Source of the DNA: Kiritimatiellia bacterium
Lineage (GTDB): Bacteria > Verrucomicrobiota > Kiritimatiellia > SLOV01
Length of the DNA: 64,000 nt
Assembly (NCBI GenBank): GCA_963578625.1
Contig: CAUZEO010000001.1
Span: 14,188 to 78,187, forward strand
Direction of reading: 5' to 3'
Part shown: positions 1-43,055 of the stretch, in pieces
Position numbering within the stretch: position 1 is the stretch's first letter
Layout of the letters: each line of letters opens with the position of its first letter
Position numbers and translations under genes: made by a program
The notes under the pieces: model-generated
Databases searched by the model: none
Told to the model about the DNA's origin: nothing
What the model saw: the letters and a program-made list of their open reading frames with translations, nothing else

Positions 1-806
1 GTGTAAATGTTCTTTTCCGGGGCGCCATAGATGACGGCCTGACCGCCTGGAGCAAGCGTCTTCAGACCGGCGACAAACATCGCGTCGGCCCCGGTTGCCT
101 CGGCAAAATAGTCCGCGCCGCGGCCTCCGGTCAGTGCCTTGACCACCTCTCCCGGATTCTCGCTGGTGACATTCACGCCGGCATTGGCGCCGAATTTTTT
201 CGCCAACTCGATCCGCTCGTCCCTCCGTCCCAGGGCAATGACGGTAGATGCTCCCGCCAGTGCCGCATACATGCAGATTGCGTAACCGGCCAGGCCCGTG
301 CCGCCCACCGCGATGGTCTTGCCTCCAAGAGCGCCGACCTTCCAACTCCAACTGCCGAGTTCGGCGAGACTAATGGCCAGGGAGGCGTCCAGAGGATCGA
401 GATCCAGCGGGGGCCGCATGTGGCGCATGGCCGTATAGTCTTCCTCGGGCAGCGTGGCCGGATCCCGTATGATTCCGTACTCTGCGAATCCGCCCCACCC
501 GCTGAAGTATCCGTCCCGGGATTCCCCGGGATAAATCGCGGCTACTCGCGTCACCCGGTCGCCGGCCTTAAAAGAGGTTACGTTCTTACCAACCTCCTCA
601 ACCACTCCTACGGACTCATGTCCCAGGATCGCCGGATAATTCTCCCGCGGATGATGAACCTGAATCCCCTCCACGATGTGCCGGTCGGTGGTGCCGCATA
701 ACCCGCACACTTCGATCTTCACCAGTGCCTCACCGGGCCCCGGCTCCGGCGGCGGGACGTTCTGAATCTCAACCCGACCCGGCTCTACAACGATTCCTGC
801 TTTCAT
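1..806 (-). CDS. Zn-dependent alcohol dehydrogenase (MDR family), 3' end beyond window start
   Basis: Reverse-strand translation from ATG at 806..804 gives MKAGIVVEPGRVEIQNV...EVCGLCGTTDRH...GHESVGVVEEVG...GGTGLAGYAICMYAALAGAS, the typical MDR catalytic plus Rossmann fold. The frame stays open to position 1. The start overlaps the stop of the downstream gene (ATGA). Confidence 0.6.
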   Translation of the reverse strand, partial: MKAGIVVEPGRVEIQNVPPPEPGPGEALVKIEVCGLCGTTDRHIVEGIQVHHPRENYPAILGHESVGVVEEVGKNVTSFKAGDRVTRVAAIYPGESRDGYFSGWGGFAEYGIIRDPATLPEEDYTAMRHMRPPLDLDPLDASLAISLAELGSWSWKVGALGGKTIAVGGTGLAGYAICMYAALAGASTVIALGRRDERIELAKKFGANAGVNVTSENPGEVVKALTGGRGADYFAEATGADAMFVAGLKTLAPGGQAVIYGAPEKNIY

Positions 807-1810
807 GACCGTCCCCAGTCAAAAACAATTCCGGTAAAATCCTGCGGTCGCTCCACCACCATCGCGTACGCTTCCGGGGCATCCTGCGGCGCAAAGGTGT
901 GCGTGACAAATGAATCCAACTTCAACATGCCCCCGAGCATCAGACGATGGCAGTACTCGTGGGCCTCCTTGGACTGCGCGCATGGGATCCGGATGAGCGC
1001 TCGCTTGCCGTGCAGCCCGTCAAAGCAGATCGGCGTCTCTCCCGGATAGTACCCCTGCAGAATGAACTGCCCTTCCATCTTCAGCAAGTCCCCGGCCTGG
1101 TTCACCACCGGGGCGACACTCGTCGTGTCGACGACGATGTCCGCGCCGGCTTCGGGGATCAGGCCCTTCAACTGCGGAAAGATGGGCCCGCCGTCGAGCA
1201 CCACGCCTTCGTCGCATCCCACCGACAGGGCCTGCTCCACGCGCGATTCCAGCATGTCGGCGACCACAACCCGCGCGCCCTTGGCGCGAAGCACCTGGGC
1301 GGAGCTCTGTCCGATAAGACCCAGCCCCAGGACAACCGCGACGTCGCTGGTCACCACCTTGACCATGTCCGCGCCTCGCGCGGAGACCGATGCCAGTCCG
1401 GCCATCGCCGCCTCGCCATCCGAAATGCCGTCGGGAATCTTGCAGACATACGGCGGCCAGTCGTCCGGCTCCCGGTCCGGCACCAGAGCGTGCGACACGT
1501 GCGTTCCCATCCAGCTGTTCGATGCGTAAGGCTCCGGAAGGCGCGTACTGAAGTAGAAAACCCGGTCCCCTTCGGAAAACCCTTCCCGGGAGGAGCCGAC
1601 CGTCTCCACGACGCCTACCCCCAGGTATCCGGGAATGTTGGGAAAGCTGATCTCCTGCCGCTGACTGATCAGGGCCCAACGCTCGGTGCCCACGCTGATG
1701 CCGGTGCACGTGGCCCGGACCACCAGATCGGTATCCGCGGGCTCCGGCATCTCGATCTCGCGCAGTCCGACCTTCCGATCCGCTTCAAAGACAATGGCTG
1801 TAGCTTTCAA
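803..1810 (-). CDS. MDR-family zinc-binding dehydrogenase
   Basis: 335-aa ORF with GroES-like N-terminus, CTGISVGTE motif and Rossmann motif VVLGLGLIGQSSAQV. Sits in tandem with the upstream MDR gene. Confidence 0.8.
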   Translation of the reverse strand: MKATAIVFEADRKVGLREIEMPEPADTDLVVRATCTGISVGTERWALISQRQEISFPNIPGYLGVGVVETVGSSREGFSEGDRVFYFSTRLPEPYASNSWMGTHVSHALVPDREPDDWPPYVCKIPDGISDGEAAMAGLASVSARGADMVKVVTSDVAVVLGLGLIGQSSAQVLRAKGARVVVADMLESRVEQALSVGCDEGVVLDGGPIFPQLKGLIPEAGADIVVDTTSVAPVVNQAGDLLKMEGQFILQGYYPGETPICFDGLHGKRALIRIPCAQSKEAHEYCHRLMLGGMLKLDSFVTHTFAPQDAPEAYAMVVERPQDFTGIVFDWGRS

Positions 1811-1938
1811 TATTCAAACCTCTCTTCGCTTGCAAGTTGCAGGAACCACCAAGTACACAAAATACCCACCGAAGCCAAGCCGTAACCAAACGGATTTTGA
1901 ACAGATTATTTTCTTTCTTTCGCCTATTTCGTGGTTCC

Positions 1939-2883
1939 TCACTCCGTATTGAATTCAGGGTCCCGTCCGCGGAATTCGTCTTCCAATCGTTCTCGGATTT
2001 CCGGTGAGAGGGGCGGCAGCGCAGTGGTTTCTATGCACTGGCGGGTTTGCTCCTCCGTTCTGGCTCCGAGGACGACGTTCGACACACCCTCCCGGTCCAG
2101 CGCAAAGCGAACGGCGACCTGGGTCAGGGTCTCATACGGCGGGACAACGGCCCATAGTTTCATCTCTTGAGCACACTGCAGGATGATAGCGAGGCTCTCG
2201 TTTCCCCATCTGCCCCGGGGATCATCAGGCCGCTCGAAGGAATCTCCCGGCACATACTTCCCCGCGAGGAAACCGTCTTCCAATACCGTTCGGGCCACAA
2301 TCCCGACATTGGCGTCCGAAGCTTCCCCAAAGATTTCGGCAGTCCCCTGCCGGAAAATGCTGTAAATGACCATGAGCACGTCCACCCGGCCGGACTGAAT
2401 TGCATTGCGGCAAAGCCCGATGGTTTGGGGCGTCACATCCGCTCCCTTGATTGATGACCCGATCGCCCGAATTTTCCCCTCTTGCCGTAGCTGCTCATAC
2501 GTGCCGAGGACAACCTCCAATTCCGCCGGATCAATCGGGGGTTCGTGCATGTAATAGAGGTCGATGCAATCGCGCCCGAGCAACCGCAGCGACTCCTCCA
2601 ATTCGCGCCGGATGTCGGCGGGATCTGTCTCCCAGGTCTTACTGGCGATGATCAGGTCGGCCGGGTACCCGTTCTTCCGAAAATACTCCCCGATGTATCG
2701 CTCGCTGTTCCCGTACCCGCGAGCCGTATCGATGAAGTTCCCCCCTTGCTCAACAAAGGACCGAAGTACAGAAAACGCATTTTCCTCAGAGATCCGGCCA
2801 TGGCCCGCACTGGCGATCTGCCCAGCACCCAAGCTGATCTCCGAAACCTCGAAACCGGTTTTACCTAGTACACGGCGACGCAT
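1939..2883 (-). CDS. Aldo/keto reductase
   Basis: Canonical AKR start MRRRVLGKTGFEVSEISLGAG, then IDTARGYG and a C-terminal AKR core. The ORF extends to 3057, but the internal ATG at 2883 matches the family N-terminus. Confidence 0.8.
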   Translation of the reverse strand: MRRRVLGKTGFEVSEISLGAGQIASAGHGRISEENAFSVLRSFVEQGGNFIDTARGYGNSERYIGEYFRKNGYPADLIIASKTWETDPADIRRELEESLRLLGRDCIDLYYMHEPPIDPAELEVVLGTYEQLRQEGKIRAIGSSIKGADVTPQTIGLCRNAIQSGRVDVLMVIYSIFRQGTAEIFGEASDANVGIVARTVLEDGFLAGKYVPGDSFERPDDPRGRWGNESLAIILQCAQEMKLWAVVPPYETLTQVAVRFALDREGVSNVVLGARTEEQTRQCIETTALPPLSPEIRERLEDEFRGRDPEFNTE

Positions 2884-2959
2884 GAGAATTGTGTTCAACG
2901 ACGAAATACACGAAACACATGAAAATCCGGATTCTGATCTTTTCCGGGCATTTCGTGGT

Positions 2960-3358
2960 TCAGCGAAGTTTGTTCCACCCCTGCTCCTCCTGCTTCGGAG
3001 GTCCCGGCGGAGGAGGGCTGAAGGCATAGTAGTAGCAGAGGTCTCCCGGGCCCTCATTGATCGACTGGTGCCGGACTCCCGCCGGAATGTACACCGTCAT
3101 CCCCTCCCGGACCGTATACTCCTCGTCTTCCAGCAAAAGTTTCCCTTCGCCGCAGACAACATAATAAATCTCCGCCTCCTTCGGATGAACATCCGGTTCC
3201 GACCGGTTGCCCGGCGTCAACCGCCACAATCCGGCGCAGATGTCTTTCGCACCGCACGCGTCCTCTCCAATCAGCAGGGATACCGTGCGGGACCCGTCGG
3301 GGGCCTGCCACAATTCCTGTTGTTCCGGGTCAATAACACAATTCTCATACTTGGGCAT
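2960..3358 (-). CDS. Cupin domain protein
   Basis: 132 aa with cupin motifs (HPKEAEIYYVVCGEG ... YIPAGVRH). Confidence 0.65.
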   Translation of the reverse strand: MPKYENCVIDPEQQELWQAPDGSRTVSLLIGEDACGAKDICAGLWRLTPGNRSEPDVHPKEAEIYYVVCGEGKLLLEDEEYTVREGMTVYIPAGVRHQSINEGPGDLCYYYAFSPPPPGPPKQEEQGWNKLR

Positions 3359-3381
3359 GCTGACTCTCCTTTATTATAGAA

Positions 3382-4137
3382 TTACACGAGAAGGGACCCG
3401 CCATTGACATGAAGGGTTGCGCCGGTCACATAGGTCGATCGCCCGGACACCAGGTAGAATACCGCGTCCGCGATCTCGCGCGCAGTGCCCTGGCGCTTCA
3501 AGGGCGCCGCTTCTTTAAATTCCTGCTTCTGGCACTCCCCGAAGCTGTCGGTCATCGGGGTGTCGATCGATCCCGGCGCGATTGCATTTACCAGGATCCC
3601 GTCCTTCGCATGTACTTTCGCGGCAGACTTGGTCATGGCGATCATGCCCGCCTTGCTCGCGCCATAGGCCGGATGTGCGCAGACACTCCCGAGCACGGCC
3701 CCGGCCGACGAAATGTTGACCACCCGCCCGTACTTCCTTGCCTGCATGTGGGAAAGAACAGCCTTGAAACAGATGAACGCGGAATTCAAGTTCGTGTTGA
3801 TGACATGATTCCAGTTGTCCAATGTCGTATCCGCCCACGTCGTCGTCGGCGCGATCCCGGCGACGTTCACCAGGATATCGATACGTTCAAACCGCTCTAT
3901 GGTGGAGGCGACCATGCGGTTGACCTCATCTTCCCTGGAAACGTCCGTCGCGGAAACCAGTACCTCCGTGGAAGTCTTTCCGCGCACGGAATCTCCCACA
4001 ACCTCCAGGCCGTCTGCATTGATGTCGGCCAACGTAAGTCCGGAAATGCCCTCCTCTGCAAGCACCTCGGCCACGGCTTTGCCAATGCCGGAAGCGGCAC
4101 CGGTGACAATCGCAACTTGACTGGTTAGTTCATCCAT
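3382..4137 (-). CDS. SDR family oxidoreductase
   Basis: VAIVTGAASGIGKA glycine-rich motif, NVAG, and YGASKAG catalytic Y-x3-K. Confidence 0.85.
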   Translation of the reverse strand: MDELTSQVAIVTGAASGIGKAVAEVLAEEGISGLTLADINADGLEVVGDSVRGKTSTEVLVSATDVSREDEVNRMVASTIERFERIDILVNVAGIAPTTTWADTTLDNWNHVINTNLNSAFICFKAVLSHMQARKYGRVVNISSAGAVLGSVCAHPAYGASKAGMIAMTKSAAKVHAKDGILVNAIAPGSIDTPMTDSFGECQKQEFKEAAPLKRQGTAREIADAVFYLVSGRSTYVTGATLHVNGGSLLV

Positions 4138-5092
4138 TACGAAGTGGCCCCAGGTCTCCGAAACTTCCCGGAGGCTTCCCTCTGAATTCGGGGCTCCGGC
4201 AGCGCAATTCCCTCGCCCTTTCGAAGTAGTCCGTCTTCAATTCTATCCCATACTCCTTCGCCAGGTCCTCCGCGCTACGATCCGCGAGGTACGACGTGAT
4301 CAACACATTTTCCTCTTTGTCCATTTTCACGATCGTCACACCCCCTCCGAGGTCACCCTCCATTGCTGCGATCTGCTCCTCGTTCCAATTGGCGTGGGCG
4401 ACAACGAAATCCAAGCCGATTTCGGCAGTCACGATCGGTCGGTCTTTACTACTCTCCGTCAACCAGCGCCCCAGCGGATCGACTACAAATCCTCCCTGGT
4501 ACCCACCTTCGCCGGTCACCTGCGCGGAGGCGATGTAGTATTGATTCTGGATCGCGCGAACGATGTTGTGCGCACCGGCATGGTAAAAGGAGGGGAAGAG
4601 AACGAGCTTGGCATGATGCTCCCCCAGGCCGTTCATGATCTCATCGAAATTCATATCGAAGCAAGTGGCGGCGCCGATGCGCCCCCAGGGGGTGTCGAAC
4701 ACCTTCACCTCCTCCCCCGGTACCACGCCGGCCGCTAACTCGCCGGTTGTCGGAAACATCTTGTCGTACACCCCGATGAGATCGCCCTTGTCATCGATCA
4801 GGAACATGGAGTTCCGATAACCGACCTCATCTTTCGAAAACGTCCCCCCGGCAACCCATGTACCGTGCTGGTTTGCGATCGCTCCCAGCCGATCCGTCAA
4901 CGGACCGGGCAGAGAATCCGCAACCGGCAGCGCCTCCTCGATCGGTATCCCGAAATACGGGAAGAGCTCCGGCAAAAGCACCAGGTCCGGGGATTCCGCG
5001 AGCGCAACCTCGAGATGCTGTACCGCAACATCGACGTTCTCCTCAATCGAGCGAACATCGCTGTACTTCAGACTGACGGTGGAAATCTTCAT
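4130..5092 (-). CDS. Carbon-nitrogen hydrolase (nitrilase superfamily) protein
   Basis: LVLLPELF (catalytic Glu region) and GAATCFDMNFDE (catalytic Cys) are typical of the CN-hydrolase family. Confidence 0.7.
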   Translation of the reverse strand: MKISTVSLKYSDVRSIEENVDVAVQHLEVALAESPDLVLLPELFPYFGIPIEEALPVADSLPGPLTDRLGAIANQHGTWVAGGTFSKDEVGYRNSMFLIDDKGDLIGVYDKMFPTTGELAAGVVPGEEVKVFDTPWGRIGAATCFDMNFDEIMNGLGEHHAKLVLFPSFYHAGAHNIVRAIQNQYYIASAQVTGEGGYQGGFVVDPLGRWLTESSKDRPIVTAEIGLDFVVAHANWNEEQIAAMEGDLGGGVTIVKMDKEENVLITSYLADRSAEDLAKEYGIELKTDYFERARELRCRSPEFRGKPPGSFGDLGPLRNG

Positions 5093-5892
5093 CCGGCAGC
5101 CGTGGTCTCGATTTCCTTCAATTGCCGTTGCCCGACAAGTTTGACTTCCGCATCCGCGGTTTTTTCGAAAGAGACGCGATTGTCGACATGCGCCTTGGAA
5201 TTATTCACCGAGACATTGCTCATCGTCGTGTAGCAACTGATAAACGACCAGCGCGCCTGCGCGCTCTTGTTGGCATCGGAGCGGTGCAGCATATTCCCGT
5301 GAAAAAACAGGGCGGTACCCGGATCCATCTCACAATATACTAGTTCAAGATGCTTCAACGCGTCCTCCACCCGCTTCAAATCGGCGCCGGCCTGAGTTCC
5401 GGCTTTTCCGTGCTCGACGCGGCCCATCCGGTGAGACCCGCGGATGACCTGCAGGCAACCATTCTCTTTCGTCGCCCGGTTGACCGCGATCATGCAGCTC
5501 GCCGTATCGGGAAACAGCAGACCGTCGTAATCGTCCTGGTACCAGTAGCCGTAGTCCTGGTGCCATTCCCACGCGCCGCCCACATGCGGATCTTTCAGCA
5601 TCATCTTGTGGTGAAAGTGGTACACCTTGTCCCGCAGCACCTGCTCGAGCGGGTTGACGATCCGCTCGCACTTCGCGAATGCGCTAAACACATCGTCCCC
5701 CAGTTCCTCGGTAAGCCAGATCCGGCTGACTCCGCCCTCGGCATCGCGGTCGGCGTAGGAATCTCGGGCGACCTGCTCGCTCTTCTCGGTGATGCGCTGC
5801 AGGAGCTCGACCTCCTCGGAGTCGAAGAGTCCTTCGACGAAGAGAACGCCATCGCGGTCAAATTGTCGAATCTGTTGTTCAGTCAGTGTCAT
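5089..5892 (-). CDS. Phytanoyl-CoA dioxygenase (PhyH) family Fe(II)/2OG oxygenase
   Basis: N-terminal MTLTEQQIRQFDRDGVLFVEGLFD, then HQDYGYW and HRSDAN motifs. The ORF extends to 5940; the internal Met at 5892 matches the family N-terminus. Confidence 0.75.
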   Translation of the reverse strand: MTLTEQQIRQFDRDGVLFVEGLFDSEEVELLQRITEKSEQVARDSYADRDAEGGVSRIWLTEELGDDVFSAFAKCERIVNPLEQVLRDKVYHFHHKMMLKDPHVGGAWEWHQDYGYWYQDDYDGLLFPDTASCMIAVNRATKENGCLQVIRGSHRMGRVEHGKAGTQAGADLKRVEDALKHLELVYCEMDPGTALFFHGNMLHRSDANKSAQARWSFISCYTTMSNVSVNNSKAHVDNRVSFEKTADAEVKLVGQRQLKEIETTAAG

Positions 5893-6634
5893 CTGGTTGA
5901 GAATCCGAAAAGCTGAAATTTCGACGCAAGGAGTTCTCACTCAAGGCCGGCAGGTCTTTGGGGTAAACGGATATAAGCCGCTTCCCCTCCTGCTGGTAAA
6001 GCATCTTTTTCTTATACATGCTCATATTGTATTGCGGGGTGTCCATGCCCCAATACTCGATGTACACATCCAGTTCAGAAAGATAAAAATCCGGACGGAT
6101 CTGGAATTCCTTAATGATCCGATACTTGGTGTCATATCGGTACGCAAGGCCCTGAGCCGTCAGCCATTCGGCGATCTTACCCTCGCCCTCGGACTGCACA
6201 AGCGTTCCATCGCGAGCCTCGACGGTCTTGTTGATCTCGACCTGGGTTTCGAAGTTTCGTCGTTCCAGGAATACCTCGTCGAAACAGCGGTCGTAGAAGA
6301 CGCGTTGAAAAGCTTCGCTGGAGCGGCCATGCTCCTCGGGCGAGACTGCGGTGTTGCAGCGCTGGCAGCGGTGCTTAACGCCGGCTTCGGTATCTTGAGA
6401 AGCCAGGTCAATGGCATCTGCAGTGGTCTTCGCGGCAGCGCGGACATAGTCGCGGCTCGCGGGGTTTCGCGCGAGGTCGCGGAGATCGTTGACCTGGGCT
6501 TGCGCCTCAGCGCCAAATTTTTTCAGCGCGCGGATCGCGTATTGCTGCGTCTGCGCATGCGGCCCTTTCAGCGCAATCGGCGCCAGCGCCGCTTGGTGCT
6601 CTTTGGGTAGCATCGGGCTTTTCATGGCGTCCAT
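5879..6634 (-). CDS. Hypothetical protein with C-terminal restriction-endonuclease-like (DUF559/Vsr-like) motif
   Basis: ORF continues to 6802, which would overlap the upstream gene, so the Met at 6634 is preferred. The C-terminus reads GKIAEWLTAQGLAYRYD...IRPDFYLSELDVYIEYWG, resembling PD-(D/E)xK / DUF559 cores. The N-terminus is HEAT-like helical. No database check was possible. Confidence 0.45.
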   Translation of the reverse strand: MDAMKSPMLPKEHQAALAPIALKGPHAQTQQYAIRALKKFGAEAQAQVNDLRDLARNPASRDYVRAAAKTTADAIDLASQDTEAGVKHRCQRCNTAVSPEEHGRSSEAFQRVFYDRCFDEVFLERRNFETQVEINKTVEARDGTLVQSEGEGKIAEWLTAQGLAYRYDTKYRIIKEFQIRPDFYLSELDVYIEYWGMDTPQYNMSMYKKKMLYQQEGKRLISVYPKDLPALSENSLRRNFSFSDSQPDDTD

Positions 6635-6794
6635 CCATCCACTCGCTGCCGCTCGCCGACTCGAAAGCCGGTCGCATCGGCAAGCGAAACGAGTCGGTGC
6701 GTGTTCTTTTCCAGCCAATTCATCCGCAGTCCACCTACTCGAATCCAGACGAAAAGTCGAGAGTTGGCCTGAAAATAGAGCGCTTTCCACAACC

Positions 6795-9002
6795 TCAAGC
6801 AAACTTCAAGAATGAATCTTCACACGTCAGCTCGTAAATCCGAACATCCGTCGCCGGCAACGCGGCAAGCAACTTGCCGTCCTCGATGCAGGTTTCCCCA
6901 CTGGAAAGCCATTCGTGGCAGGACTCGATTTGCGTGCCCTTCACCTCGACCGTACCGTCCCACGGCGCTTCGGCATTGTTGATCAGCGTGACCAGGAGCT
7001 TGTAGGGATCATCCGTTACATTCACGATCGACTGGATCGGCCGCCCCTTGATCTTGATGAGCGTATAGGATTCCAGCACGGATCCCACGATCTCCTGCAC
7101 CACCTTCAGGAAATTCACTGGGGGGAACGGCCGGCCCCGGATAAAGTCGTTCCGGTAGCTCATGTCCCAGGGCAGGTCCTCCCGCTTGTGCCAGACGTAG
7201 TCGGGCCGCTCGCCGTTGGCCCAGAACACCGGCGTCACAACAAACACATGGCCGTCACCCACCTTGTTCAAGCACACGAGCGGATGTCCCGCGTCGTTCG
7301 TTGCCAACACTTCCGCGCCGTCAGTCTCCACCAGGTCGTAAACGTATTCGGCCTCACGATAGGTTTTGCCGGTGACGAGGCTTTTTGCCGTGGCGTCCTT
7401 CAGGTCCTTGTCCTTCACCGTCACGCCCGCGAGGTCCGCGATGCCGCCGGTCATCTGCCGAGTACACAGGACGACCGAGCGGCCGGAGCGCACGAATGCT
7501 TCCAGGTTCGCCGCGAAACCCGCGTCGTCGGGCATCTGTCCCAACAGCACCACGGCCTGGTACTTCTTCAATGCGTCCTCCGACGCATTGTGCAGGAGCA
7601 CGTCGAAAGAATCGCCGAACGGGGTGGGGGTCAGGCAGCCGCGCTGATTTGGCGCATAGGCGTACTCGCCATACCCGGGATAAACCCAGTGGAAAAACTG
7701 GTCGATCTGGAAGTCACCCATATTGTAGGGGATGTTGCCCCATACCCGTTCCGGTTCACTCTGCCCCAGGCCCTTGTGAATGGGCGGGCACCAGCCGTGA
7801 TGGAAATCCAGAACCAGGGCCACTGGTGAGTACTGCACGCCTCGATTCGGACGCGCGCGCGTGATCCAGACCCACTTGCGGAATTCCCGGCCGAACGGGG
7901 TAAGGTTGTGCTCGAGATCGGAACCCCGGTGCAGGTTTCTCCGCTGCACGTCCGACGCCACGTCGCACACCGATGCGTTCTCCCGCTCCACCGGCAAATC
8001 GGGCCGGACGCCTTCCGCCTCGATTCCGGAGAAGTCCTTGGGCAGACCGCACATGTCGTCGTAGAAGAGTCCGCCCTCCGTGCCGCACAGACTGAATCCA
8101 TACATGTACGCAGCAAACCAGAGCCGCTTGGCCAGGTGGGTGGAAATTCCGCCGTCGGGGTAGCCGTATTGAAATTCGATTTTGATGCCCCGGCCTTCTT
8201 TCGGGTAGCACTTGGTACCATAGAAATCAGGCTTCTGCTCGATGCTCGGGATGAACATCGAGATGTGCCCATGTGTGAGCAGGTCGTACTGGCGGGAAGC
8301 GCCCCGCAGAAACGCGCATCGCATGATGCTGCTCTGCAGGCCGGTGCCGAGCTCCAGCCCAATCATGCGATGATTCAGTTCCGCATAATAGTGCGAAAAT
8401 CCCAGGCTCCCGATGGTGACCACGTAATGGTGAAACATCACGTCCAGGGTATCGCGGGAAAATCGAACAAAATCCTCGTAGGCTTCCTTCCGGCTGCGTT
8501 CCGGAGATTGTTTGGGCCAATTAAAGGAGCCGAAGACATATTGGCCAAGGTACTCCCCATCCTGCTCCCCGTTCTCCCACCCGAGAAACCGCGGGCCGAA
8601 GGTTTCCATCAGGAATTCCTGCACATCATCGGGCACCACCATTTCGCCGGAGCCCAGGTTGAAAGGAATGCCGTGGCGGATGCCCCAGATGCTGTTGATG
8701 ATCAGCCCTTTCTCGGCATACTTTTTCGCAATCTCGCGCCACCCCGGCTCCTCGCCGTCCTGCGGCCGGTTCACCCACATCCAGGCGGTGAATGGCCGGA
8801 TGGCGGTGGCAAAGTCATAGTCGAACATCGCGTTGTAGATCAGGTAATCGTTCCACCCCATCTGCACGCTCTCCTGGAAGTCTTTGGGAAGATCCCGCCT
8901 GGCCACCGGCTTCGGCTCGACCTGGTTGTACCGGGGGCTGTCCTCCGGCGTGATGGGCTTGTTGGGGATCGGGTGCAGGGTCAGTTCGGGCAACGTGGAC
9001 AT
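6795..9002 (-). CDS. Uncharacterised large protein, paralog family A, copy A1 (no signal peptide)
   Basis: 735-aa ORF collinear with 25429..27687 and 36320..38524. Shared blocks: DPKPVARRDLPKDFQESVQMGW, IWGIRHG, FGPRF.GWENGEQD, ERSRKEAYEDFVRFS, QYDLLTH, FVRSGR.VVLCTRQ. The layout looks like an N-terminal catalytic domain, an alpha/beta 'AVVLLG.MPDD' domain and a C-terminal beta-sandwich. Confidence 0.85.
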   Translation of the reverse strand: MSTLPELTLHPIPNKPITPEDSPRYNQVEPKPVARRDLPKDFQESVQMGWNDYLIYNAMFDYDFATAIRPFTAWMWVNRPQDGEEPGWREIAKKYAEKGLIINSIWGIRHGIPFNLGSGEMVVPDDVQEFLMETFGPRFLGWENGEQDGEYLGQYVFGSFNWPKQSPERSRKEAYEDFVRFSRDTLDVMFHHYVVTIGSLGFSHYYAELNHRMIGLELGTGLQSSIMRCAFLRGASRQYDLLTHGHISMFIPSIEQKPDFYGTKCYPKEGRGIKIEFQYGYPDGGISTHLAKRLWFAAYMYGFSLCGTEGGLFYDDMCGLPKDFSGIEAEGVRPDLPVERENASVCDVASDVQRRNLHRGSDLEHNLTPFGREFRKWVWITRARPNRGVQYSPVALVLDFHHGWCPPIHKGLGQSEPERVWGNIPYNMGDFQIDQFFHWVYPGYGEYAYAPNQRGCLTPTPFGDSFDVLLHNASEDALKKYQAVVLLGQMPDDAGFAANLEAFVRSGRSVVLCTRQMTGGIADLAGVTVKDKDLKDATAKSLVTGKTYREAEYVYDLVETDGAEVLATNDAGHPLVCLNKVGDGHVFVVTPVFWANGERPDYVWHKREDLPWDMSYRNDFIRGRPFPPVNFLKVVQEIVGSVLESYTLIKIKGRPIQSIVNVTDDPYKLLVTLINNAEAPWDGTVEVKGTQIESCHEWLSSGETCIEDGKLLAALPATDVRIYELTCEDSFLKFA

Positions 9003-9124
9003 GGCTCTCTCCTGTAGGCGAATTTTAAACTCCGGAAAATCTGCCCTAGCCTTGGAAGGATGTCGAGAATTTCACTCACGCCCTATAGATTACTTCGCCT
9101 TGGCCATGCGGAGAACAAATTGTC

Positions 9125-9844
9125 TCATTCGGGATATTCCGGGTCATGGCCTGTGATGACAGGAGCGTTCAGTCGGCGGATGCGTGCCAATCCCTGGAAA
9201 CAGGCCTGCAGGTCGCAGTTGTAACCCGGCGGCACGTCGTCGCGTAGATTCCGCGGGGTAAGCGCCACGTCACTGGTGAGAACCAACGGACCGGCGTCGG
9301 TCTGCACCATGACCGCCTGGGAACCCATGGTGTGACCGCCCAGCAGCAGCACGTTGATGCCGGGCAGGACTTCGGCATCGCCATCGAGGACGACCAGCCG
9401 GTCGGCACACCCTTTCAGGTGGGAATGCACGACGTCCACAAATGCGTGGGCCGCGAACCAGGGGTGGGGCGGATCAACGATCACATCCAACTCCCTGCGT
9501 TGGATGTACAGCCGCGCCTGGTCAAATGCCTTCACCACGGGCGAGCAGTGATCCCAATGCAGATGAGTGAAGATGATGTCGGTCACCTGGGAAGGCTCAA
9601 CCTGGGCTTGTTTGAGAAGGTTCAGCGGGCGGGTGGCTTCGGTCTGCCCCATATCGGGATTGAATGCCGCACCGTCGGCCTGGTCACAGCCGACGTCCAC
9701 CAGCACCGTTCGCTGGTTGTTCCGGATCAGCGTAAAGCGGTATTTCAAAGTGATGCTGCGCATCGGATCACCCAAAAAGTAGACGCGTGCTTCCGGTTCG
9801 ATGCTGCGTCCGAAAACCAGCGACTTGATCCGGTATGTGCTCAC
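9125..9844 (-). CDS. MBL-fold metallo-hydrolase
   Basis: HLHWDHCS metal-binding motif and a metallo-beta-lactamase-fold layout. The ORF runs to 10024, but that would overlap the upstream SDR; GTG at 9844 or a nearby start is more likely. Confidence 0.7.
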   Translation of the reverse strand: MSTYRIKSLVFGRSIEPEARVYFLGDPMRSITLKYRFTLIRNNQRTVLVDVGCDQADGAAFNPDMGQTEATRPLNLLKQAQVEPSQVTDIIFTHLHWDHCSPVVKAFDQARLYIQRRELDVIVDPPHPWFAAHAFVDVVHSHLKGCADRLVVLDGDAEVLPGINVLLLGGHTMGSQAVMVQTDAGPLVLTSDVALTPRNLRDDVPPGYNCDLQACFQGLARIRRLNAPVITGHDPEYPE

Positions 9845-14515: not shown

Positions 14516-14523
14516 GGGGTTTA

Positions 14524-19433: not shown

Positions 19434-19520
19434 ACTTTTCGCGAATGGGATAGCTTCTAGTATTGAAGCCACTTCATCGGGCCGTCGTCGCAAAGAACGC
19501 TTGAATTACTCGCAATAAAC

Positions 19521-36319: not shown

Positions 36320-38524
36320 TCAGGCGAACTCGAGGAACGACTCCTCACAGGTCAGTTCGTAGATCCGCACATCTGTCGCCGGCACGGCGGCCTTCAGCCT
36401 GCCCTTCTTGATCATGGCCTCCCCGCTGGAGAGCCACTCGAGACATGACTCGATTTTCTGGCCCTTGACCTTCACCGTTCCCTCCCAGGTTACCTCCCCG
36501 TTGTTGACCAGGGTGACCAGGAGTTTGCGCGGGTCGTCGGTAACGTTCACGATCCACTGGATGGGCCGCCCCTTGACCTTGATCAGGGAGGTTGACTCGA
36601 TCACCGAGCCCACGATCTCCTGCACGACCTTGAGGAAGTTCGGCGGCGGAAACGGACGGCCCCGGATGTAGTCGTTCCGGTAGTTCATGTCCCAGGGCAA
36701 ATCGTCCCGCTTGTGCCAGACGTAGTCGGGACGCTCGCCGGTGGCCCAGAACACCGGCGTGACCACATAGACGCTGCCTTCGCCCACCCGGTTCACGCAA
36801 ACCAGAGGATCGCCGGCATCGTTTACCGCGAGCACCTCGGCGCCGTCGGATTCGACCTTGTCGTAGATGTACTCCGCCTCCTTGTAGCTCTTTCCCGTGA
36901 CCAGGCTCTTCGAGCCCGTCCCCTTCGCGTCCGTTTCCTTCACGCGCAAGCCGGCGAGGTTTGCGAGGGTTCCCCTGAGTTGGCGCGTGCAGAGGACGAC
37001 GGTCCGCCCGGCCCGGACAAACGACTCCACGTTGGCCGCGAAATCCTCGTCGTCGGGCATCCCGCCCAGCAGGACCGCGACCTGGTACTTGTTGAGGACA
37101 TCCATCGACGCGTTGCTCAGGATCACATCGAACGAATCGCCGAGCGGGGTGGGCGTCAGGCATCCCCGGCCGTTGATCGCGTAGGCGTACTCGCCATAGT
37201 TCGGAAAGATCCAGTGGAAGAACTGATCGATCTGGAAATCGCCCAGGGTGTAGTCGATGTTACCCCAGACTTTCTCCGGATGGCCCTGCCCCATGCCTTT
37301 GTGGATGGGCGGGTTCCACCCGTGGTGGAAGTCGAGCACCAGGGCCACCGGCGAGTACTGCACACCGCGGTCCGGGCGCGTCCGCGTGGTCCACACCCAC
37401 TTGCGGTACTCCCGGCCGAACGGCGTGAGGTTGGCCTCCAGGTCGTGCCCCCGTTGGACGTTCTGCTTCTTCATCGCGCCCTTGATGTCGCCCACCCAGG
37501 AGTCTTCCCCTTTCACCGGGATCTCCGGCCGGATCCCCTCCGCCTCGATGGTCGAGAACTCCTTCGGCAAGGCACACATGTCGTCGTAAAAGAGCCCACC
37601 CTCGGTGCCGCACAGACTCAATCCGTACATGTAGCCGGCGAACCAGAGGCGCTTGGCGAGGTGGGTGGGAACGCCGCCGTCGGGGTGGCCGAACATGAAC
37701 TCGACCTTGATGCCGGGGCTGTTCCTCGGGAAACACTTCGTGTTGTAGAAGTCGGGTTTCTGCTCGATGCTGGGCATGAACATGGAGATGTGGGCGTGGG
37801 TGAGCAGGTCGTACTGGCGGGCGGCGCCGCGCAAGAACGCGCAGCGCATGATGCTGCTCTGCAACCCGGTGCCGAGTTCCAGGCCGATCATGCGGTGACC
37901 CATCTCGCCGTAGTAGTGGCAGAAGCCCAGGCTTCCAATGGAGACAACGTGGTGATGGAAGAGGGCGTCGAGGGTGTCCCTGGAGAACCGGACAAAATCC
38001 CCGTAGGCCTCCTTGCGGCTTCGGTCGGGTGATTGCTCAGGCCATTCGTAGGAGCCGAAGACATATTGGGCGCAGTACTCTCCGTCCTGCTCCCCGTTCT
38101 CCCATCCGAGAAACCGCGGCCCGAAAATGTCGAGCAGGAACCGGTGGGTTTCCTCCGGCACCACCGCCTCGCCGGTGCCGTTGAAAAAGTCCATCCCGTG
38201 CCGGATGCCCCAGATGCTGTTGAGGATCAGTCCCTTCTCGGCGTACTTCTTCGCGATCGCCCGCCACCCCGGCTGTTCGTCCTCGATCTGATCGGACCAC
38301 ATGTAGGCACTGAAGGGCCGGATGGCGGTGGCAAAATCGTAGTCGAACATGGTGTTGTGGATGAGGTAGTCCTTCCACCCCATCTGCACGCTCTCCTGGA
38401 AATCCTTGGGGAGGTCGCGGCGGGCCACCGGCTTCGGGTCCAGTTGTTCGTACCGCTCGCCCTCCTCCGGGACGATGGCCTTGTTGGGGATGGGCTGCAG
38501 TTTCAATTCAGGCAAATCGGGCAT
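36320..38524 (-). CDS. Uncharacterised large protein, family A copy A3
   Basis: 734 aa, collinear with A1 and A2. Confidence 0.85.
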   Translation of the reverse strand: MPDLPELKLQPIPNKAIVPEEGERYEQLDPKPVARRDLPKDFQESVQMGWKDYLIHNTMFDYDFATAIRPFSAYMWSDQIEDEQPGWRAIAKKYAEKGLILNSIWGIRHGMDFFNGTGEAVVPEETHRFLLDIFGPRFLGWENGEQDGEYCAQYVFGSYEWPEQSPDRSRKEAYGDFVRFSRDTLDALFHHHVVSIGSLGFCHYYGEMGHRMIGLELGTGLQSSIMRCAFLRGAARQYDLLTHAHISMFMPSIEQKPDFYNTKCFPRNSPGIKVEFMFGHPDGGVPTHLAKRLWFAGYMYGLSLCGTEGGLFYDDMCALPKEFSTIEAEGIRPEIPVKGEDSWVGDIKGAMKKQNVQRGHDLEANLTPFGREYRKWVWTTRTRPDRGVQYSPVALVLDFHHGWNPPIHKGMGQGHPEKVWGNIDYTLGDFQIDQFFHWIFPNYGEYAYAINGRGCLTPTPLGDSFDVILSNASMDVLNKYQVAVLLGGMPDDEDFAANVESFVRAGRTVVLCTRQLRGTLANLAGLRVKETDAKGTGSKSLVTGKSYKEAEYIYDKVESDGAEVLAVNDAGDPLVCVNRVGEGSVYVVTPVFWATGERPDYVWHKRDDLPWDMNYRNDYIRGRPFPPPNFLKVVQEIVGSVIESTSLIKVKGRPIQWIVNVTDDPRKLLVTLVNNGEVTWEGTVKVKGQKIESCLEWLSSGEAMIKKGRLKAAVPATDVRIYELTCEESFLEFA

Positions 38525-38646
38525 GGATCTCTCCTGTAGGCGAATTTTAAACTCCGAAAAATCTGCCCTAACCTTGGAAGGATGTCAAGAATTTCACTCA
38601 CGCCCTATAGATTACTTCGCCTTGTCCATGCGGAGAACAAATTGTC

Positions 38647-38940
38647 TCATTCGGGATATTCCGGGTCATGGCCCGTAATGACAGGAGCGTTCAGTCGGCG
38701 GATGCGTTCCAATCCCTGGAAACAGGCCTGCAGGTCGCGTAACCCGGCGGACCGGCGTCGGTCTGCACCATGACGGCCTGGGAACCCATGGTGTGACCGC
38801 CCAGCAGCATCACGTTGATGCCGGGCAGGACTTCGGCATCGCCATCGAGGACGACCAGCCGGTCGGCATACCCTTTCAGGTGGGAATGCACAACGTCCAC
38901 AAAAGCGTGGGACGCGAACCAGGGATGGGGCGGATGTATC
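38647..38940 (-). pseudogene. Truncated MBL-fold hydrolase (degraded copy of 9125..9844)
   Basis: Encodes …LERIRRLNAPVITGHDPEYPE* and HPWFASHAFVDVVHSHLKG…, the C-terminal third of the MBL gene. It has a ~57-nt internal deletion and ends abruptly at 38940 against a hairpin element. Confidence 0.6.
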
Positions 38941-39165
38941 GCACTGCGGACTGAAGTCCGCAACCACAGACGCGGGCTAAAGCAGTTTAAGGTAGCCCAT
39001 GGCCGCGAGACAGAACACAGGATTGGCCACAAAGAGGCACAAAAAATACCCGAGAGAAAATCACTTTGTGCCTTTTTGTGGCCATGAATTTTGCTTAACC
39101 TGCGCTAAAGCCCACGCTACCTGGAGGCGTAGCGCGGAATTCATTCCGCAGTCGTTAAGGCAGTC
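38941..39165. mobile_element. MITE-like element (~225 bp) with palindromic terminal inverted repeats
   Basis: Left end actgcggactgaagtccgc; right end gcggaattcattccgcagt (16/19 as inverted repeat). The interior carries further hairpins (ggccacaaagaggcacaaa…tttgtgcctttttgtggcc; gcgctac…gtagcgc). It encodes no protein. Confidence 0.5.
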
Positions 39166-39174
39166 GATGAGTTC

Positions 39175-40158
39175 TTAGCTCTTATATTCCCATACCCACC
39201 GGGAATCATTTTCGTCCCCGTGTATGGACAGACCTCTCGCACCCTTGAGCCCGTCATAGATCTCGTTCATTTCATCAATCGAATCAAAGAATCCGATGAC
39301 GTAAGCTGCGCCGAACGTGCCACCTGCCTTGACCGGACGGCCGCCGATCTCCTGGATGAAGCAGACGTACCCGCGTTGATGACACCAGCCTTCGTATGCG
39401 TCGGCGGGATCCAGGGTCATCCCCGCGAGCCAGGGATCGATTCCCGATTCCGTTCGTATGCGATAGGCGCGGATAAACCGGTCGGGAAGGTTGGCGTCAT
39501 CCCGCTGGTAGAGCGTCTTTCCATCCGGTGGAAAATCTTCGAGAAACTCCGAACTCGGCAGCGTACCCATGTGGCTGAGGTAGATCTCCGAAAATGAATC
39601 CGCGGCCCGGTGCTTCAAATGGCCCGGCATATCGATTCGCAAGATCAGCGCATCGGAATCGTTGACACTCGTGACCCGGTCACTCGCGAAAAAGTAGCGC
39701 CGCCCGTCGGGGAAAACGAGCACCTGTTCCCATCGCGAACCGGACTCGGACCCCTCAATCGACTGGTTCCAATTCCACCACTGTCGGACCGCAACAAAGC
39801 CGTCCCCGCGATAAACGGCGTAGGGAAGCCGCCTTGCCTGGGTGCAAATCTGGGGCAGTTCGATATATCGCTTGATCAGGTTGCCGTGTGACGGCTCGTC
39901 TTCTCCCCAGGGATAGGGATGCGTGGCATCCTGTTCAACGCCTTCCGCGGGCTCGAGAAGAAAGTCAATAATGTCGAGCCCGAATCCGAGGTCGGTTCCC
40001 CCCGTTTTCCGGTCCCGGAACGAACCGCCCTTCACACCGCTGACGAATCCTGCGCCGACGGACTGATCACCGATCGTATAGCCCTCCGTCGCGACAGTCG
40101 CGGTAAACGAATCCGTCTCGATTTGGATCTCGGTTCCATCAATTGAGAGATCCGCCAT
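39175..40158 (-). CDS. Hypothetical protein
   Basis: 327-aa ORF with good protein-like composition and no signal peptide. Co-directional with the downstream GH-like gene. Confidence 0.55.
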   Translation of the reverse strand: MADLSIDGTEIQIETDSFTATVATEGYTIGDQSVGAGFVSGVKGGSFRDRKTGGTDLGFGLDIIDFLLEPAEGVEQDATHPYPWGEDEPSHGNLIKRYIELPQICTQARRLPYAVYRGDGFVAVRQWWNWNQSIEGSESGSRWEQVLVFPDGRRYFFASDRVTSVNDSDALILRIDMPGHLKHRAADSFSEIYLSHMGTLPSSEFLEDFPPDGKTLYQRDDANLPDRFIRAYRIRTESGIDPWLAGMTLDPADAYEGWCHQRGYVCFIQEIGGRPVKAGGTFGAAYVIGFFDSIDEMNEIYDGLKGARGLSIHGDENDSRWVWEYKS

Positions 40159-40220
40159 GGCTCAGTCTTTCGGAGAGCAGATGAGTGGATATGAAAGGAT
40201 GAGGCTCATCAAATTTCGGG

Positions 40221-42236
40221 TCAATTAGAGTGCTCCAGAATGAACGATTCCTGAATCGCCAATTCCTTCGCCCGAAGGCGCACCCACGAACCGTTACGTT
40301 CGAGACCGATCTCCCTGTCGCGGGGCGCGCGAAGAATCCTTCGGACTTTTCCGACTCGGTTCTCATTGATCCATACCGTGACATTTGCGAGCGAAGGAAG
40401 ATTTCCGGGACGGTCATTCAACCCGGTGAGTATGGGGTAACGGTTGACGAAGTGCACGATGTGCCGGTTCCCCTGGCGGTTGACGATCACCTCGACGCCG
40501 GACGGTGCTTCGGAGCGGAGAAGTGGTTCCTCGATCAACAAGTGGATTAGATTCTCCACCATGAGCACCAGCCGGTGACGATGGCGGCTCTCGGGCTGAT
40601 CGGCTTCGGCAATTGGATATCCCATACACACGGCCGACCCGTTGCCGACACGGTTGCGAGTGATCGCAACATCCGATGACGGCGCGGGGCGCGGGGGATT
40701 GGGGCCCCACCAGATATACGTCTCGCGGGACCGTTCCGCGATCGGGTAAACGTAGCGCGCCAGCGATTCCGCGTCGGCGAGCTCCAGCTTCCACGCCGCG
40801 CCGTCGCTACGGACGGGCTCCCGGCTCATTTCGCCGATGACGTCGCCATGAAGATCACCGACGTAGTTGGTGCTGAACCCGGTTCCGGTCGCCCCGGACA
40901 ATCCCAGAAGGTTCATCAGGCGCTGCGGAGGATGGGCGGAAAGGACCCGGCCGTCGACCAGCAGGCTCCCGCCGCCGGAGACGAACGTTTCCAGCGCGTC
41001 CAGCGTCGCGTTTTCGAGGGGGAATCCATCTTCCACAATGAGAAGCCGGTACCGGTCGATGTCGATCCGGTCGGGCAGCACGACGCCGAAGGGGACGTGA
41101 TGCCGGAGCAATGTCAACGGCCACGCCGGGTTGTACTCGCGCGCGAACGGGATCAGGAGTCCGACGTCGTACACCGGTTCGGTGTTGATCACGTATTCCT
41201 GTCGCTCCCGCAGGAATGCCCCGACCTGGCCCAGTTCGTCCATCTGGTGCCCGGAAAAAAATCCGCCCGGTGTGACGTCGAATCCTCCGACGACCGAACC
41301 GCCGTGCGCGGTCAGGAGTGCGGCCTCGGAGAGAAGCATGTTTGTCGGCCGCGTGGTCCAGCTATTCACGCTATCGGAGACGGGGGTGTAGTGTTCGAAG
41401 TTGTGCTCCGGCTTCTTGCGCGGCGCGAGGAATCTCGGTGCGAAGCTCTTCGTTTCCGGCGCATCGGCTTCCGCGGAAAGGCTATCGCACAATGCGTCGA
41501 TCTCATCGAATCCGGGGAGGAGATTCGACCCGCATCCGTTGTAGACGAGGGGCCGACGCACCCCACCGCGATCCGCGATCTCCCGAATGGAGCGCATGAG
41601 ATCCAGGAGGTAGTCCCGGCTCCAGCGGCGGGTTTGATCCGTGCCCCACGCCTCGGCAAGGTCCGCGCCACCATGCGTATCGGCGAATGCCTGGCGGCAG
41701 TAATCACAGAAGCACCCGTCGCGAGGGTATTCCATGCTGTCCAGCCAGAACCCGTCGGGCTCGGCGGTTTCCAGAATCTCCTCCATCTGGCCCAGGATCA
41801 GCGCGCGGAAGCCCGGGTTGTTGACGCAGCAGACGCCATGGTCGACCGGATAGGGCGCGCCGAATTCGTGAGCCATTCCTTCCCGGTCGACGCAGCGCCA
41901 GTCCGGGTGCACCTCGGCCGACCAGACGTCGATCGTAACGGAATAGTAGGCCATGACACGCAAGCCCTGTTGGTGCGCTTCCGCGGTGAATTCCGCGATG
42001 TAGTCCCGCTTCGGCTGCTTTTCCCGGTACTTGGACTCGAAGAAGCAGATCCCGTCGTGGTGCTTGCAGTGCAGCACGGCAATCCGGAACCCCCCGCGCT
42101 TGAGCTTCTCGACCCACTCCGCGGGATCGAAGTCTTCGATCGGCTGTGCCCATCGCGGACTGAACCACGACATGTACGCCTTCCACGGATCCTGCGTGTA
42201 CCATTGGACTGGATTCGTCACGACCTGCTCAACCAT
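40221..42236 (-). CDS. Glycoside-hydrolase-like protein (GH29/GHL6-like TIM barrel plus GATase1-like domain)
   Basis: N-terminal block GGFRIAVLHCKHHDGICFFESKY…GLRVMAYYSV resembles the alpha-L-fucosidase/GHL6 barrel start. The C-terminal half resembles the trimerisation domain of GH42-type beta-galactosidases. Confidence 0.6.
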   Translation of the reverse strand: MVEQVVTNPVQWYTQDPWKAYMSWFSPRWAQPIEDFDPAEWVEKLKRGGFRIAVLHCKHHDGICFFESKYREKQPKRDYIAEFTAEAHQQGLRVMAYYSVTIDVWSAEVHPDWRCVDREGMAHEFGAPYPVDHGVCCVNNPGFRALILGQMEEILETAEPDGFWLDSMEYPRDGCFCDYCRQAFADTHGGADLAEAWGTDQTRRWSRDYLLDLMRSIREIADRGGVRRPLVYNGCGSNLLPGFDEIDALCDSLSAEADAPETKSFAPRFLAPRKKPEHNFEHYTPVSDSVNSWTTRPTNMLLSEAALLTAHGGSVVGGFDVTPGGFFSGHQMDELGQVGAFLRERQEYVINTEPVYDVGLLIPFAREYNPAWPLTLLRHHVPFGVVLPDRIDIDRYRLLIVEDGFPLENATLDALETFVSGGGSLLVDGRVLSAHPPQRLMNLLGLSGATGTGFSTNYVGDLHGDVIGEMSREPVRSDGAAWKLELADAESLARYVYPIAERSRETYIWWGPNPPRPAPSSDVAITRNRVGNGSAVCMGYPIAEADQPESRHRHRLVLMVENLIHLLIEEPLLRSEAPSGVEVIVNRQGNRHIVHFVNRYPILTGLNDRPGNLPSLANVTVWINENRVGKVRRILRAPRDREIGLERNGSWVRLRAKELAIQESFILEHSN

Positions 42237-42314
42237 CTTTCTGACAAATCATATTTCATTGGCATCCACGATGTGAAATCCTTGTGGCTAAGTCCAGTCT
42301 GAAGAATTTTTGCA

Positions 42315-43055
42315 ATGAAGCCATTGGATCGAATCAAGCTGACTCGCGAGTATGTGCGGCGCTTCGAGCAGGATGGTTTTCTGGTCATGGACCGCCTCCT
42401 CTCGCACGAAGAAATCGATGCATTCCTTGCGCATGAGGCGTCGAGACCCGAGACACCGGATCTGGGATTGCGAGCGCACATGGTTGATCCACAGTGGAAG
42501 CATTTAGCTACCCATCCGAACGTGGCGGGCATAGCCGCGCAACTTCTCGGCGGCCCGTCCCAGGTGGTCCAGACCATGTACTTGCCCAAGAAAGCGGGAA
42601 AAGGGGCGCCGGGAATCGCGCTGCACCAGGATACGCACTATCTGCCGAGCGAACCCAACACGCTGATGGCGTGCTGGATTGCCATGAGCGACACCGACGA
42701 GCGAAACGGGGGACTCTCCGTCGTCCCTGGAAGCCATCGCGAAGAACTGCGCACAACGCATAAATCCTCGCCGGATGACCACCACTCTTGGACGCAGGAT
42801 TACCTGATGCGAGACCAGGCCGGGAAAGAGTGGACGCAGACGTTTTATTCGTTCGAGATCGACAACCTGGACCCGTCGACTCTGCAAACCCTGAAGGTCA
42901 GAAAAGGCGGCGGTGTATTCTTTACCGGCATGACCATTCACGGCTCCTACCTCAACCGCTCCGACCACGACCGTCTCGCCTTCGCGGTCCACTACATCCG
43001 CGAAGGATCCTGGGTCTTCCGCGCCGACGTACAAGACACCATGCCCACATCATAA
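42315..43055 (+). CDS. PhyH-family Fe(II)/2OG dioxygenase
   Basis: LTREYVRRFEQDGFLVMD…ALHQDTHYLP…HGSYLNRSD. Close paralog of 45227..45967. Confidence 0.8.
   Translation: MKPLDRIKLTREYVRRFEQDGFLVMDRLLSHEEIDAFLAHEASRPETPDLGLRAHMVDPQWKHLATHPNVAGIAAQLLGGPSQVVQTMYLPKKAGKGAPGIALHQDTHYLPSEPNTLMACWIAMSDTDERNGGLSVVPGSHREELRTTHKSSPDDHHSWTQDYLMRDQAGKEWTQTFYSFEIDNLDPSTLQTLKVRKGGGVFFTGMTIHGSYLNRSDHDRLAFAVHYIREGSWVFRADVQDTMPTS

Follow-up and report, generated by a model that had tools for sequence, protein, structure and literature searches.

Hairpin repeats beside two pseudogenes in a Kiritimatiellia bacterium probably form a cluster of GTAG-tagged REP elements hit by an insertion

What are the palindromic repeats found at the broken ends of two genes in this Kiritimatiellia bacterium, and did they break those genes? 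In the window (the whole 64-kb stretch of DNA analysed here), a first-pass annotation singled out ~225 bp of non-coding sequence at 38941-39165, read it as a single MITE with hairpin termini, and held it responsible for truncating a metallo-beta-lactamase-fold (MBL) gene and a gene termed family A. Several observations behind that reading stand. Inverted hairpin ends are present, with ACTGCGGACTGAAGTCCGC at 38943-38961 (plus strand), its two-mismatch variant ACTGCGGAATGAATTCCGC at 39134-39152 (minus strand) and an exact third copy at 14540-14558 (minus strand). The predicted internal structure is strong (RNA fold of a 236-nt stretch against shuffles, z = -5.0 on the plus and -6.1 on the minus strand), and both pseudogenes are real: 38503-38935 matches 8981-9474 of the MBL region at 81% identity, rising to 96% over the last 188 bp, and 14265-14513 matches 6797-7238 of a family-A gene. 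The inverted copy near 14.5 kb is likewise there, although the 34 bp assigned to it were too few, because similarity extends over 40 nt at 90% identity (14520-14559 versus 38942-38981). Nevertheless, we conclude that 38943-39152 is probably a cluster of GTAG-tagged REP hairpins that was hit by an insertion, and that the pseudogene ends probably come from microhomology-mediated deletions.

The hairpins belong to a dispersed and probably non-autonomous repeat family, as had been suspected. The hairpin ACTGCGGAMTGAAKTCCGC has three matches in the window at up to three mismatches, against 0.02 expected from shuffled sequence. Alignment of all copies yields the consensus ACT-GCGGACTGAAGTCCGC (hp1)-nnCCnCnGAC-GCGGAATGAATTCCGC (hp2)-GCTAC, a ~50-nt doublet of two head-to-tail hairpins, each with a 7-bp stem and a 2-nt loop (GCGGACT-GA-AGTCCGC, GCGGAAT-GA-ATTCCGC and, in one copy, GCGGGCT-AA-AGCCCAC). 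On the opposite strand the doublet begins with GTAGC followed by a palindrome, and this arrangement is the hallmark of REP elements. The GCTAC tag follows hp2 in eight of nine doublets and has decayed to GTCAC in the 14.5-kb copy; in this lineage hp1 itself lacks a GTAG tag and has only its conserved ACT flank.

A scan of JGI metagenome contigs with the extended terminus CTGCGGACTGAAGTCCGCNNCCNCNGACGCGG returned at least three unrelated loci (L117, L118, L119) in addition to the orthologous locus in L120. The independent copies are the left and right doublets of the cluster, the doublet at 14509-14558, those in L117 and L118, two head-to-head copies in L119, and one at 3172-3222 of L120, which is the same site as 13375-13425 of L123. 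Besides two loci with three doublets in the 64-kb window, related contigs from marine metagenomes supply at least four more intergenic sites that are unrelated to it; the 225-bp interior is missing from each of these, and every doublet copy is intergenic. None of the aligned copies has a flanking duplication at the doublet boundaries, as expected for Y1-type transposition. Dimers occur in both arrangements, tail-to-tail in the window with tags 8 nt apart and head-to-head in L119 with a 25-nt spacer. The doublet had no match in a scan of viral contigs, and the hairpin string appeared in no paper in our literature search and is absent from the supplement of PMC3733652.

Read against this unit, 38943-39152 resolves into two tail-to-tail doublets, the left of which has its second hairpin split by an insert. 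The left doublet (plus strand) opens with hairpin 1 at 38943-38961 (ACT plus GCGGACT-GA-AGTCCGC) and the 10-nt spacer AACCACAGAC at 38962-38971, whose family consensus from the alignment is nnCCnCnGAC. The 5' part of its second hairpin, hairpin 2', follows at 38972-38983 (GCGGGCTAAAGC). After 120 bp of inserted sequence (38984-39103), the 3' part, GCTAAAGCCCAC, resumes at 39104-39120 together with the tag GCTAC (GTAGC on the opposite strand). An 8-nt spacer (39121-39128) then separates the inward-facing GTAG tags, making this a tail-to-tail dimer in the sense in which PMC3733652 uses the term in its description of REP arrangements. The right doublet is inverted (39129-39152, minus strand) and consists of GTAGC, GCGGAAT-TC-ATTCCGC and AGT. 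It has lost hairpin 1 and the spacer through a 26-bp deletion between TCCGC repeats, and it is whole in L115 and in all contigs of the L120 type; L115 has 26 extra bases at window position ~39150 that fold as another hairpin. Hairpins have thus been gained or lost inside the cluster in comparison with the L115 and L120 types. The stretch as such is kept in 10 of 10 sister contigs, and it occupies what was once the gap between the 3' ends of two convergent genes, one of LamG type that is deleted in this haplotype and the other a 327-aa gene (39175-40158).

This anatomy bears directly on whether the whole ~225-bp stretch could be one hairpin-terminated MITE, copies of which recombined and deleted parts of the adjacent genes. 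Such an element would account for inverted ends that are identical at 17 of 19 positions, for a stretch that folds end-to-end, and for the copy of one end at the other pseudogene edge. The two ends, however, are non-equivalent: the left is hp1 and the right is hp2, each taken from a doublet that is found alone elsewhere, and in sister contigs an extra hairpin lies at the right end. No target-site duplication (TSD) borders the stretch (flanks ...gtatcgc|ACT and AGT|cgttaag), its interior was seen at the orthologous locus only, and no second full copy was found in the window, related contigs, or viral and metagenome scans. Hence neither the paired TIR and TSD nor the multiple full-length copies of a MITE were found for the 225-bp stretch, and a lack of both outer TSD and second full copy is what the first-pass annotation itself had named as speaking against its reading. 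Together with the seven sister contigs in which the MBL breakpoint adjoins LamG sequence (see below), these results essentially refute the 225-bp MITE model, to which we assign very little probability, in favor of an intergenic cluster of GTAG-tagged REP hairpins. The stretch resembles MITEs and IS200/IS605-derived PATEs in being small, non-coding and structured, with hairpins near its ends, but it differs in having neither TSD nor other copies, and in elements of the IS200/IS605 type the two ends do not form an inverted-repeat pair. CRISPR repeats, integron attC sites, IS200/IS605 ends and tRNA-derived hairpins were also considered and dropped, as the anatomy fits none of them.

The segment that does carry the signature of an insertion is the 120 bp within hairpin 2'. 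It is flanked by an 8-bp direct repeat, GCTAAAGC, at 38976-38983 and 39104-39111 that is centred on the hairpin apex, and it has an imperfect TIR (17 of 24 positions; GCAGTTTAAG..CATGGCC) around a central hairpin with a stem of ~20 bp (39024-39084, from the RNA fold). Both a TSD and a TIR, as in a MITE, are thus present at this smaller scale, and excision restores the REP palindrome. Removing the insert and one GCTAAAGC leaves a 50-nt doublet that agrees with the consensus at 40 of 46 positions and with the copy at 14509-14558 at 43 of 50. Relative to hp2, its restored hairpin, GCGGGCT-AA-AGCCCAC, has two changes in the stem, both compensatory (A-T to G-C and A-T to C-G). The insert is present in all sister contigs at this single known locus; the window, ~250 kb of contigs from the same lineage, viral contigs and called proteins yielded no further copy, and a search of 5.8 billion proteins with six-frame translations of the element found no ORFs called over other copies. 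In the L120-type haplotype (L120 5435-5443, corresponding to window ~39031), the long hairpin of the insert has a 9-bp tandem duplication (GAGGCACAA) in its 5' arm. Because it makes a bulge there, this duplication argues against strong selection on the insert stem.

From its sequence signature, then, the insert is possibly a MITE or an insertion footprint inside a REP hairpin, rather than a hairpin-terminated element of which the REPs are the ends. IS1397/ISKpn1 and IS621 are insertion sequences that target REP hairpins; IS1397 makes a duplication of 3-4 bp, and IS110-family elements are not known to make one. The insert differs from REP-targeting insertion sequences in being only 120 bp long and non-coding, with an 8-bp duplication, and neither a parental insertion sequence nor a second copy was found in the searches above. 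It shares with ISPpu9 of Pseudomonas putida, as portrayed in a passage of PMC8450116, the position of a foreign segment at the apex of a REP palindrome. A bolder proposal is that the insert represents an undescribed family of miniature elements that targets REP apices with an 8-bp duplication, and that the two-hairpin doublet is a distinct REP architecture whose hp1 is near-identical across phyla; we consider this proposal unlikely. The locus does provide a case of a REP hairpin as the target of a secondary insertion.

Did the hairpins truncate the MBL gene? The pseudogene is a 3' fragment (38647-38935, minus strand) of a copy of the intact gene at ~9125-9844, which matches PF00753, and it contains a 64-bp internal deletion near 38750. 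The first-pass annotation had placed the element directly against its breakpoint. In fact, the 3' relic of a LamG-type gene (38927-38954, plus strand) lies in between: it ends with codons ...G R M Y R T A D stop, and its TGA (38952-38954) falls in the loop of hp1. The nine nucleotides at 38927-38935, GGGGCGGAT, are a microhomology common to the MBL gene (the intact copy reads ggggcggatcaacg at 9466-9480) and the LamG relic, and the deletion junction lies there.

Sister contigs record how this junction arose. Seven contigs that come from other samples (L120, L123-L128) share the 327-aa gene and the REP cluster with the window, and they also contain a 600-bp LamG 3' fragment that lies between the cluster and the MBL fragment. 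This retained fragment is called as a 198-aa Laminin_G_3 product ending in ...DQAGRMYRTAD*, identical to the window relic. In these contigs the MBL fragment stops at ...GGGGTGGGGCGG and continues into internal LamG sequence, CCATGATCG...; an intact LamG paralogue reads GGTGGCGGCGCGG|CCATGG at this point, which makes the join between MBL and LamG a microhomology junction. The LamG fragment terminates in ...GCGGGGCGGATGTATCGCACTGCGG, and the window sequence GGGATGGGGCGGATGTATCGCACTGCGG is the exact product expected of a 568-bp deletion between two GGGGCGG repeats, which identifies 38936-38954 as a LamG relic. The comparison of these sequences indicates that the initial truncation joined the MBL gene to LamG coding sequence at a point ~600 bp away from the nearest hairpin, and that the REP cluster was not the cause. 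An alternative is an independent deletion in the window lineage through the 9-nt GGGGCGGAT microhomology, in which case the junction again lies in LamG and not in a REP. The sister contigs thus preserve a stepwise record of decay, from the MBL-LamG fusion to the 568-bp deletion and then to the 26-bp deletion inside the REP cluster. As a separate observation, at 5347-5358 of L120 (and likewise in L123-L128) the REP flank and hairpin 1 encode the last three codons and stop of the LamG fragment (...T A D stop), so that in the common haplotype the REP supplies the end of the LamG ORF.

The family-A breakpoint is closer to a hairpin. The fragment (14265-14513, minus strand) is the 3' end of a paralogue of the genes at 6795-9002 and 36320-38524 and carries a 193-bp internal deletion. 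Beside it lies a solo doublet, B (14509-14558, minus strand), of the form ACT-hp1-GCCCACAGAC-GCGGAGTAAACCCCAC-GTCAC, the uninterrupted counterpart of the left doublet, with its second hairpin and tag decayed. Homology to family A stops at 14513 and overlaps the decayed tag (14509-14513) by 5 nt. The partners at this junction are similar, GGCGTGAC against the REP-side GGCGTAGC (as in L115 and L119), giving a microhomology of 5-8 nt, and in L130 and L131 both the family-A/REP junction and doublet B are identical to those of the window. The claim that both truncations coincide with the element therefore holds for family A, whose fragment stops exactly at the edge of the copy, but fails for the MBL gene, whose breakpoint was joined to LamG coding sequence.

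Could the REPs themselves have caused the adjacent deletions, by hairpin or cruciform formation or by breaks that a cognate nuclease makes at REP edges, followed by microhomology repair? Their closeness to several junctions gives this idea some appeal. The family-A fragment stops within 5 nt of a doublet tag, the cluster itself underwent the 26-bp deletion between TCCGC repeats, a distance of 8-17 nt separates hp1 from the end of the 568-bp deletion, and palindromes are stated, in a passage of PMC3733652, to promote replication stalling and deletion. Against it, the first MBL-LamG junction is ~600 bp from any REP, and no REP lies close to at least three more deletion junctions of these pseudogenes (at 13212/13223, at 14344 and at the 64-bp gap near 38750), which shows that deletion here is pervasive and REP-independent. 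Moreover, REPs mark gene boundaries, so any truncated gene is likely to have one as a neighbor, and the cases number only two. We regard this explanation as quite improbable; a REP role is possible in the family-A deletion, and a causal role overall is unsupported. Under the account that we prefer, the pseudogene breakpoints would be microhomology-mediated deletions in a paralogue-rich, decaying region, and the REPs would be bystanders or at most local fragile sites.

The surroundings of doublet B contain other remnants. The region from 13 to 14.5 kb is a pseudogene graveyard of family-A and 626-aa-family fragments; at 13085-13599 there are inverted fragments of a paralogue of the 626-aa gene (56324-58204), at 71-84% identity and with a ~1.3-kb internal deletion at 13212/13223. 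On the minus strand at 14563-14607, directly downstream of a 226-aa gene and directly upstream of doublet B, a terminator-like hairpin (GGCGGG...CCCGCC followed by T7) was seen by eye only; its loop is too long for the rule used by our scanner. A segmental duplication pairs 6795-9474 with 36320-38935, comprising a family-A gene and the 3' part of the MBL gene at 73-96% identity. In L115, a contig of a different sample, window 42812..38748 runs directly into 9474..1 by way of the MBL repeat (188 bp, 96% identity), an arrangement that is either a real ~29-kb deletion polymorphism due to homologous recombination or a chimeric assembly. The family-A protein (734-752 aa) has a weak Glyco_hydro_42M match and is represented in the window by three full paralogues and one fragment. 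Only 11 relatives were found at E<=1e-100 among 5.8 billion proteins, and the family is therefore very lineage-restricted.

We also weighed whether the stretch is primarily a functional RNA element, for instance a small RNA, a terminator that works in both directions or a stabiliser of the 3' UTR, rather than a mobile repeat. A strong predicted structure on both strands, a position directly downstream of the 327-aa gene and retention in all 10 sister contigs are what such an element might show. Yet Rfam returned nothing at gathering or permissive thresholds (the best sub-threshold score was 20.6 bits against a cutoff of 49.5), a scan around the element detected no promoter-like or terminator-like sites, and a tRNA/tmRNA scan found nothing. 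Divergence between haplotypes is about that of the flanking genes and has no compensatory pattern, and the hairpins occur at unrelated loci in both orientations relative to neighboring genes. Furthermore, homologues of the 327-aa gene at 85% and 77% identity in other organisms (L121, L122) are without the stretch and its REPs. A functional RNA is, on these grounds, highly improbable as an explanation of the stretch. Homologues of family A at 60-79% identity in other organisms (L132-L137; GC 64% and 40% against 59% in the window) are likewise without these REPs. As to taxonomy, the nearest named homologues are proteins of 'Planctomycetota bacterium' MAGs at 63%.

How do the doublets compare with known REPs? 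GTAG REPs are defined, in passages of PMC3733652, as palindromes of 20-40 bp with stems of 6-13 bp, loops of mostly 2-3 nt and an unpaired GTAG at one end; they frequently form head-to-head or tail-to-tail dimers with spacers of 1-100 bp, lie between convergent or unidirectional ORFs, and are linked with RAYT genes in REPtrons. The same passages mention composite units that combine a GTAG REP with a second stem-loop, and report head-to-tail association of REPs as rare. Short palindromes, an unpaired GTAG, head-to-head and tail-to-tail dimers, and a position between convergent or unidirectional ORFs are all found here, and judged by sequence the window elements have every structural feature of GTAG REPs. 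Like the E. coli REP/BIME and Pseudomonas REPs that are the classic examples, they combine a GC-rich palindrome of 7-bp stem and 2-nt loop with GTAG at one end, dispersal downstream of genes, tail-to-tail and head-to-head dimers and small clusters, compensatory stem variants, and no target duplication, in host phyla from which GTAG REPs are known. They differ in that two related hairpins always make up the unit, arranged head-to-tail around a conserved 10-nt spacer, and that the tag is on the second hairpin only.

A comparison with REPINs (Bertels and Rainey 2011, PMC3116915) gives a more mixed result. The window dimer also has two inverted REP arms around a short spacer that can fold as one long hairpin, and without the 120-bp insert its ~115 nt fall within the REPIN size range. 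However, no population of near-identical dimers was seen, the window and L119 dimers are opposite in orientation with unlike spacers, and each window arm is itself two hairpins, with arms that are only partly complementary.

By analogy with these systems, the doublets would be mobilised by a RAYT. A RAYT encoded elsewhere in the genome would spread these non-autonomous doublets via single-stranded DNA hairpins, without target duplication, and doublets would accumulate downstream of genes and form dimers. Settled copies may serve chiefly as hairpins, in DNA or in RNA, on the downstream side of genes. The doublets would also be prone to small slippage deletions: one between TCCGC repeats would have removed one hairpin of the right doublet (26 bp), and the 120-bp insertion would later have struck the apex of the second hairpin of the left doublet, duplicating 8 bp. 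A search by regular expression and by phmmer with two approximate queries revealed no RAYT-like ORF in the window or ~1.3 Mb of other loci, a sample in which a single-copy gene would rarely fall. For annotation, the hairpin repeats by the pseudogene ends of this paralogue-rich carbohydrate-utilisation region are best recorded as REP clusters and not as a gene-breaking transposon.

How far does the hairpin itself extend? We scanned genome contigs (596 Gb) with the hp1 19-mer, for which ~17 matches are expected by chance, so singleton matches carry no weight. Among the matches listed from other phyla, the 19-mer was followed by (N)CTAC in 43 of 126, against an expectation of 1.2%, and this enrichment marks it as a bona fide, widespread type of REP hairpin. 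CTAC-tagged copies among the matches listed came from Hymenobacteraceae, Microcoleus/Oscillatoriales, Chroococcales, Chloroflexota, Bernardetiaceae, Cytophagales, Planctomycetaceae and Methylomonas; none of the 19-mer matches listed extends beyond ~23 nt. Passages of Di Nocera, De Gregorio and Rocco (2013, PMC3733652) record GTAG REPs in Cyanobacteria, Chloroflexi and the PVC superphylum, with some families common to distant organisms. With the present locus, an uncultured marine lineage gains a REP family, and one REP hairpin sequence is seen to recur across several phyla. Only this cross-phylum identity and the candidate insertion at a REP apex go beyond the routine, and the latter, as a possible MITE, is mildly novel.

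Among the genome-contig matches listed (L001-L113), the string GTAGT-GCGGACTTCAGTCCGC-AGT recurs with all 24 nt identical in MAGs of Hymenobacteraceae (at least dozens of copies), Chloroflexota, Bernardetiaceae, Cytophagales and a Planctomycetaceae MAG. In Microcoleus, Oscillatoriales and Chroococcales cyanobacteria it often stands in tandem or inverted arrays (for example L099 and L001), and verrucomicrobial copies among the matches listed have GGAGC in place of GTAG. Identity across phyla raises the question of horizontal spread or convergence. If the hp1 module GTAGT-GCGGACTTCAGTCCGC-AGT is truly shared in nearly identical form by Bacteroidota, Cyanobacteria, Chloroflexota and PVC bacteria, it would point to horizontal spread of a RAYT/REP system, at odds with the current view that such systems are mostly inherited vertically.

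Other hairpin elements are present in the window. One at 56146-56271, a single copy among the window and the fetched contigs, is a hairpin pair with 27-nt inverted ends of 96% complementarity (GTCTGAGTTCCGCC-TTTA-GGCGGAAGC); each end contains a hairpin, more small palindromes lie inside, and there is no GTAG tag. A second GTAG-tagged inverted-repeat family occupies 19305-19435 and 43094-43217, where head-to-head arms (GTAGGTTGGGYTTCCAAGCCCGACCC.., with the hairpin GGGCTT-GG-AAGCCC) are separated by spacers of ~41 nt to give REPIN-like elements of ~125-130 bp, and both loci are conserved in sister contigs.
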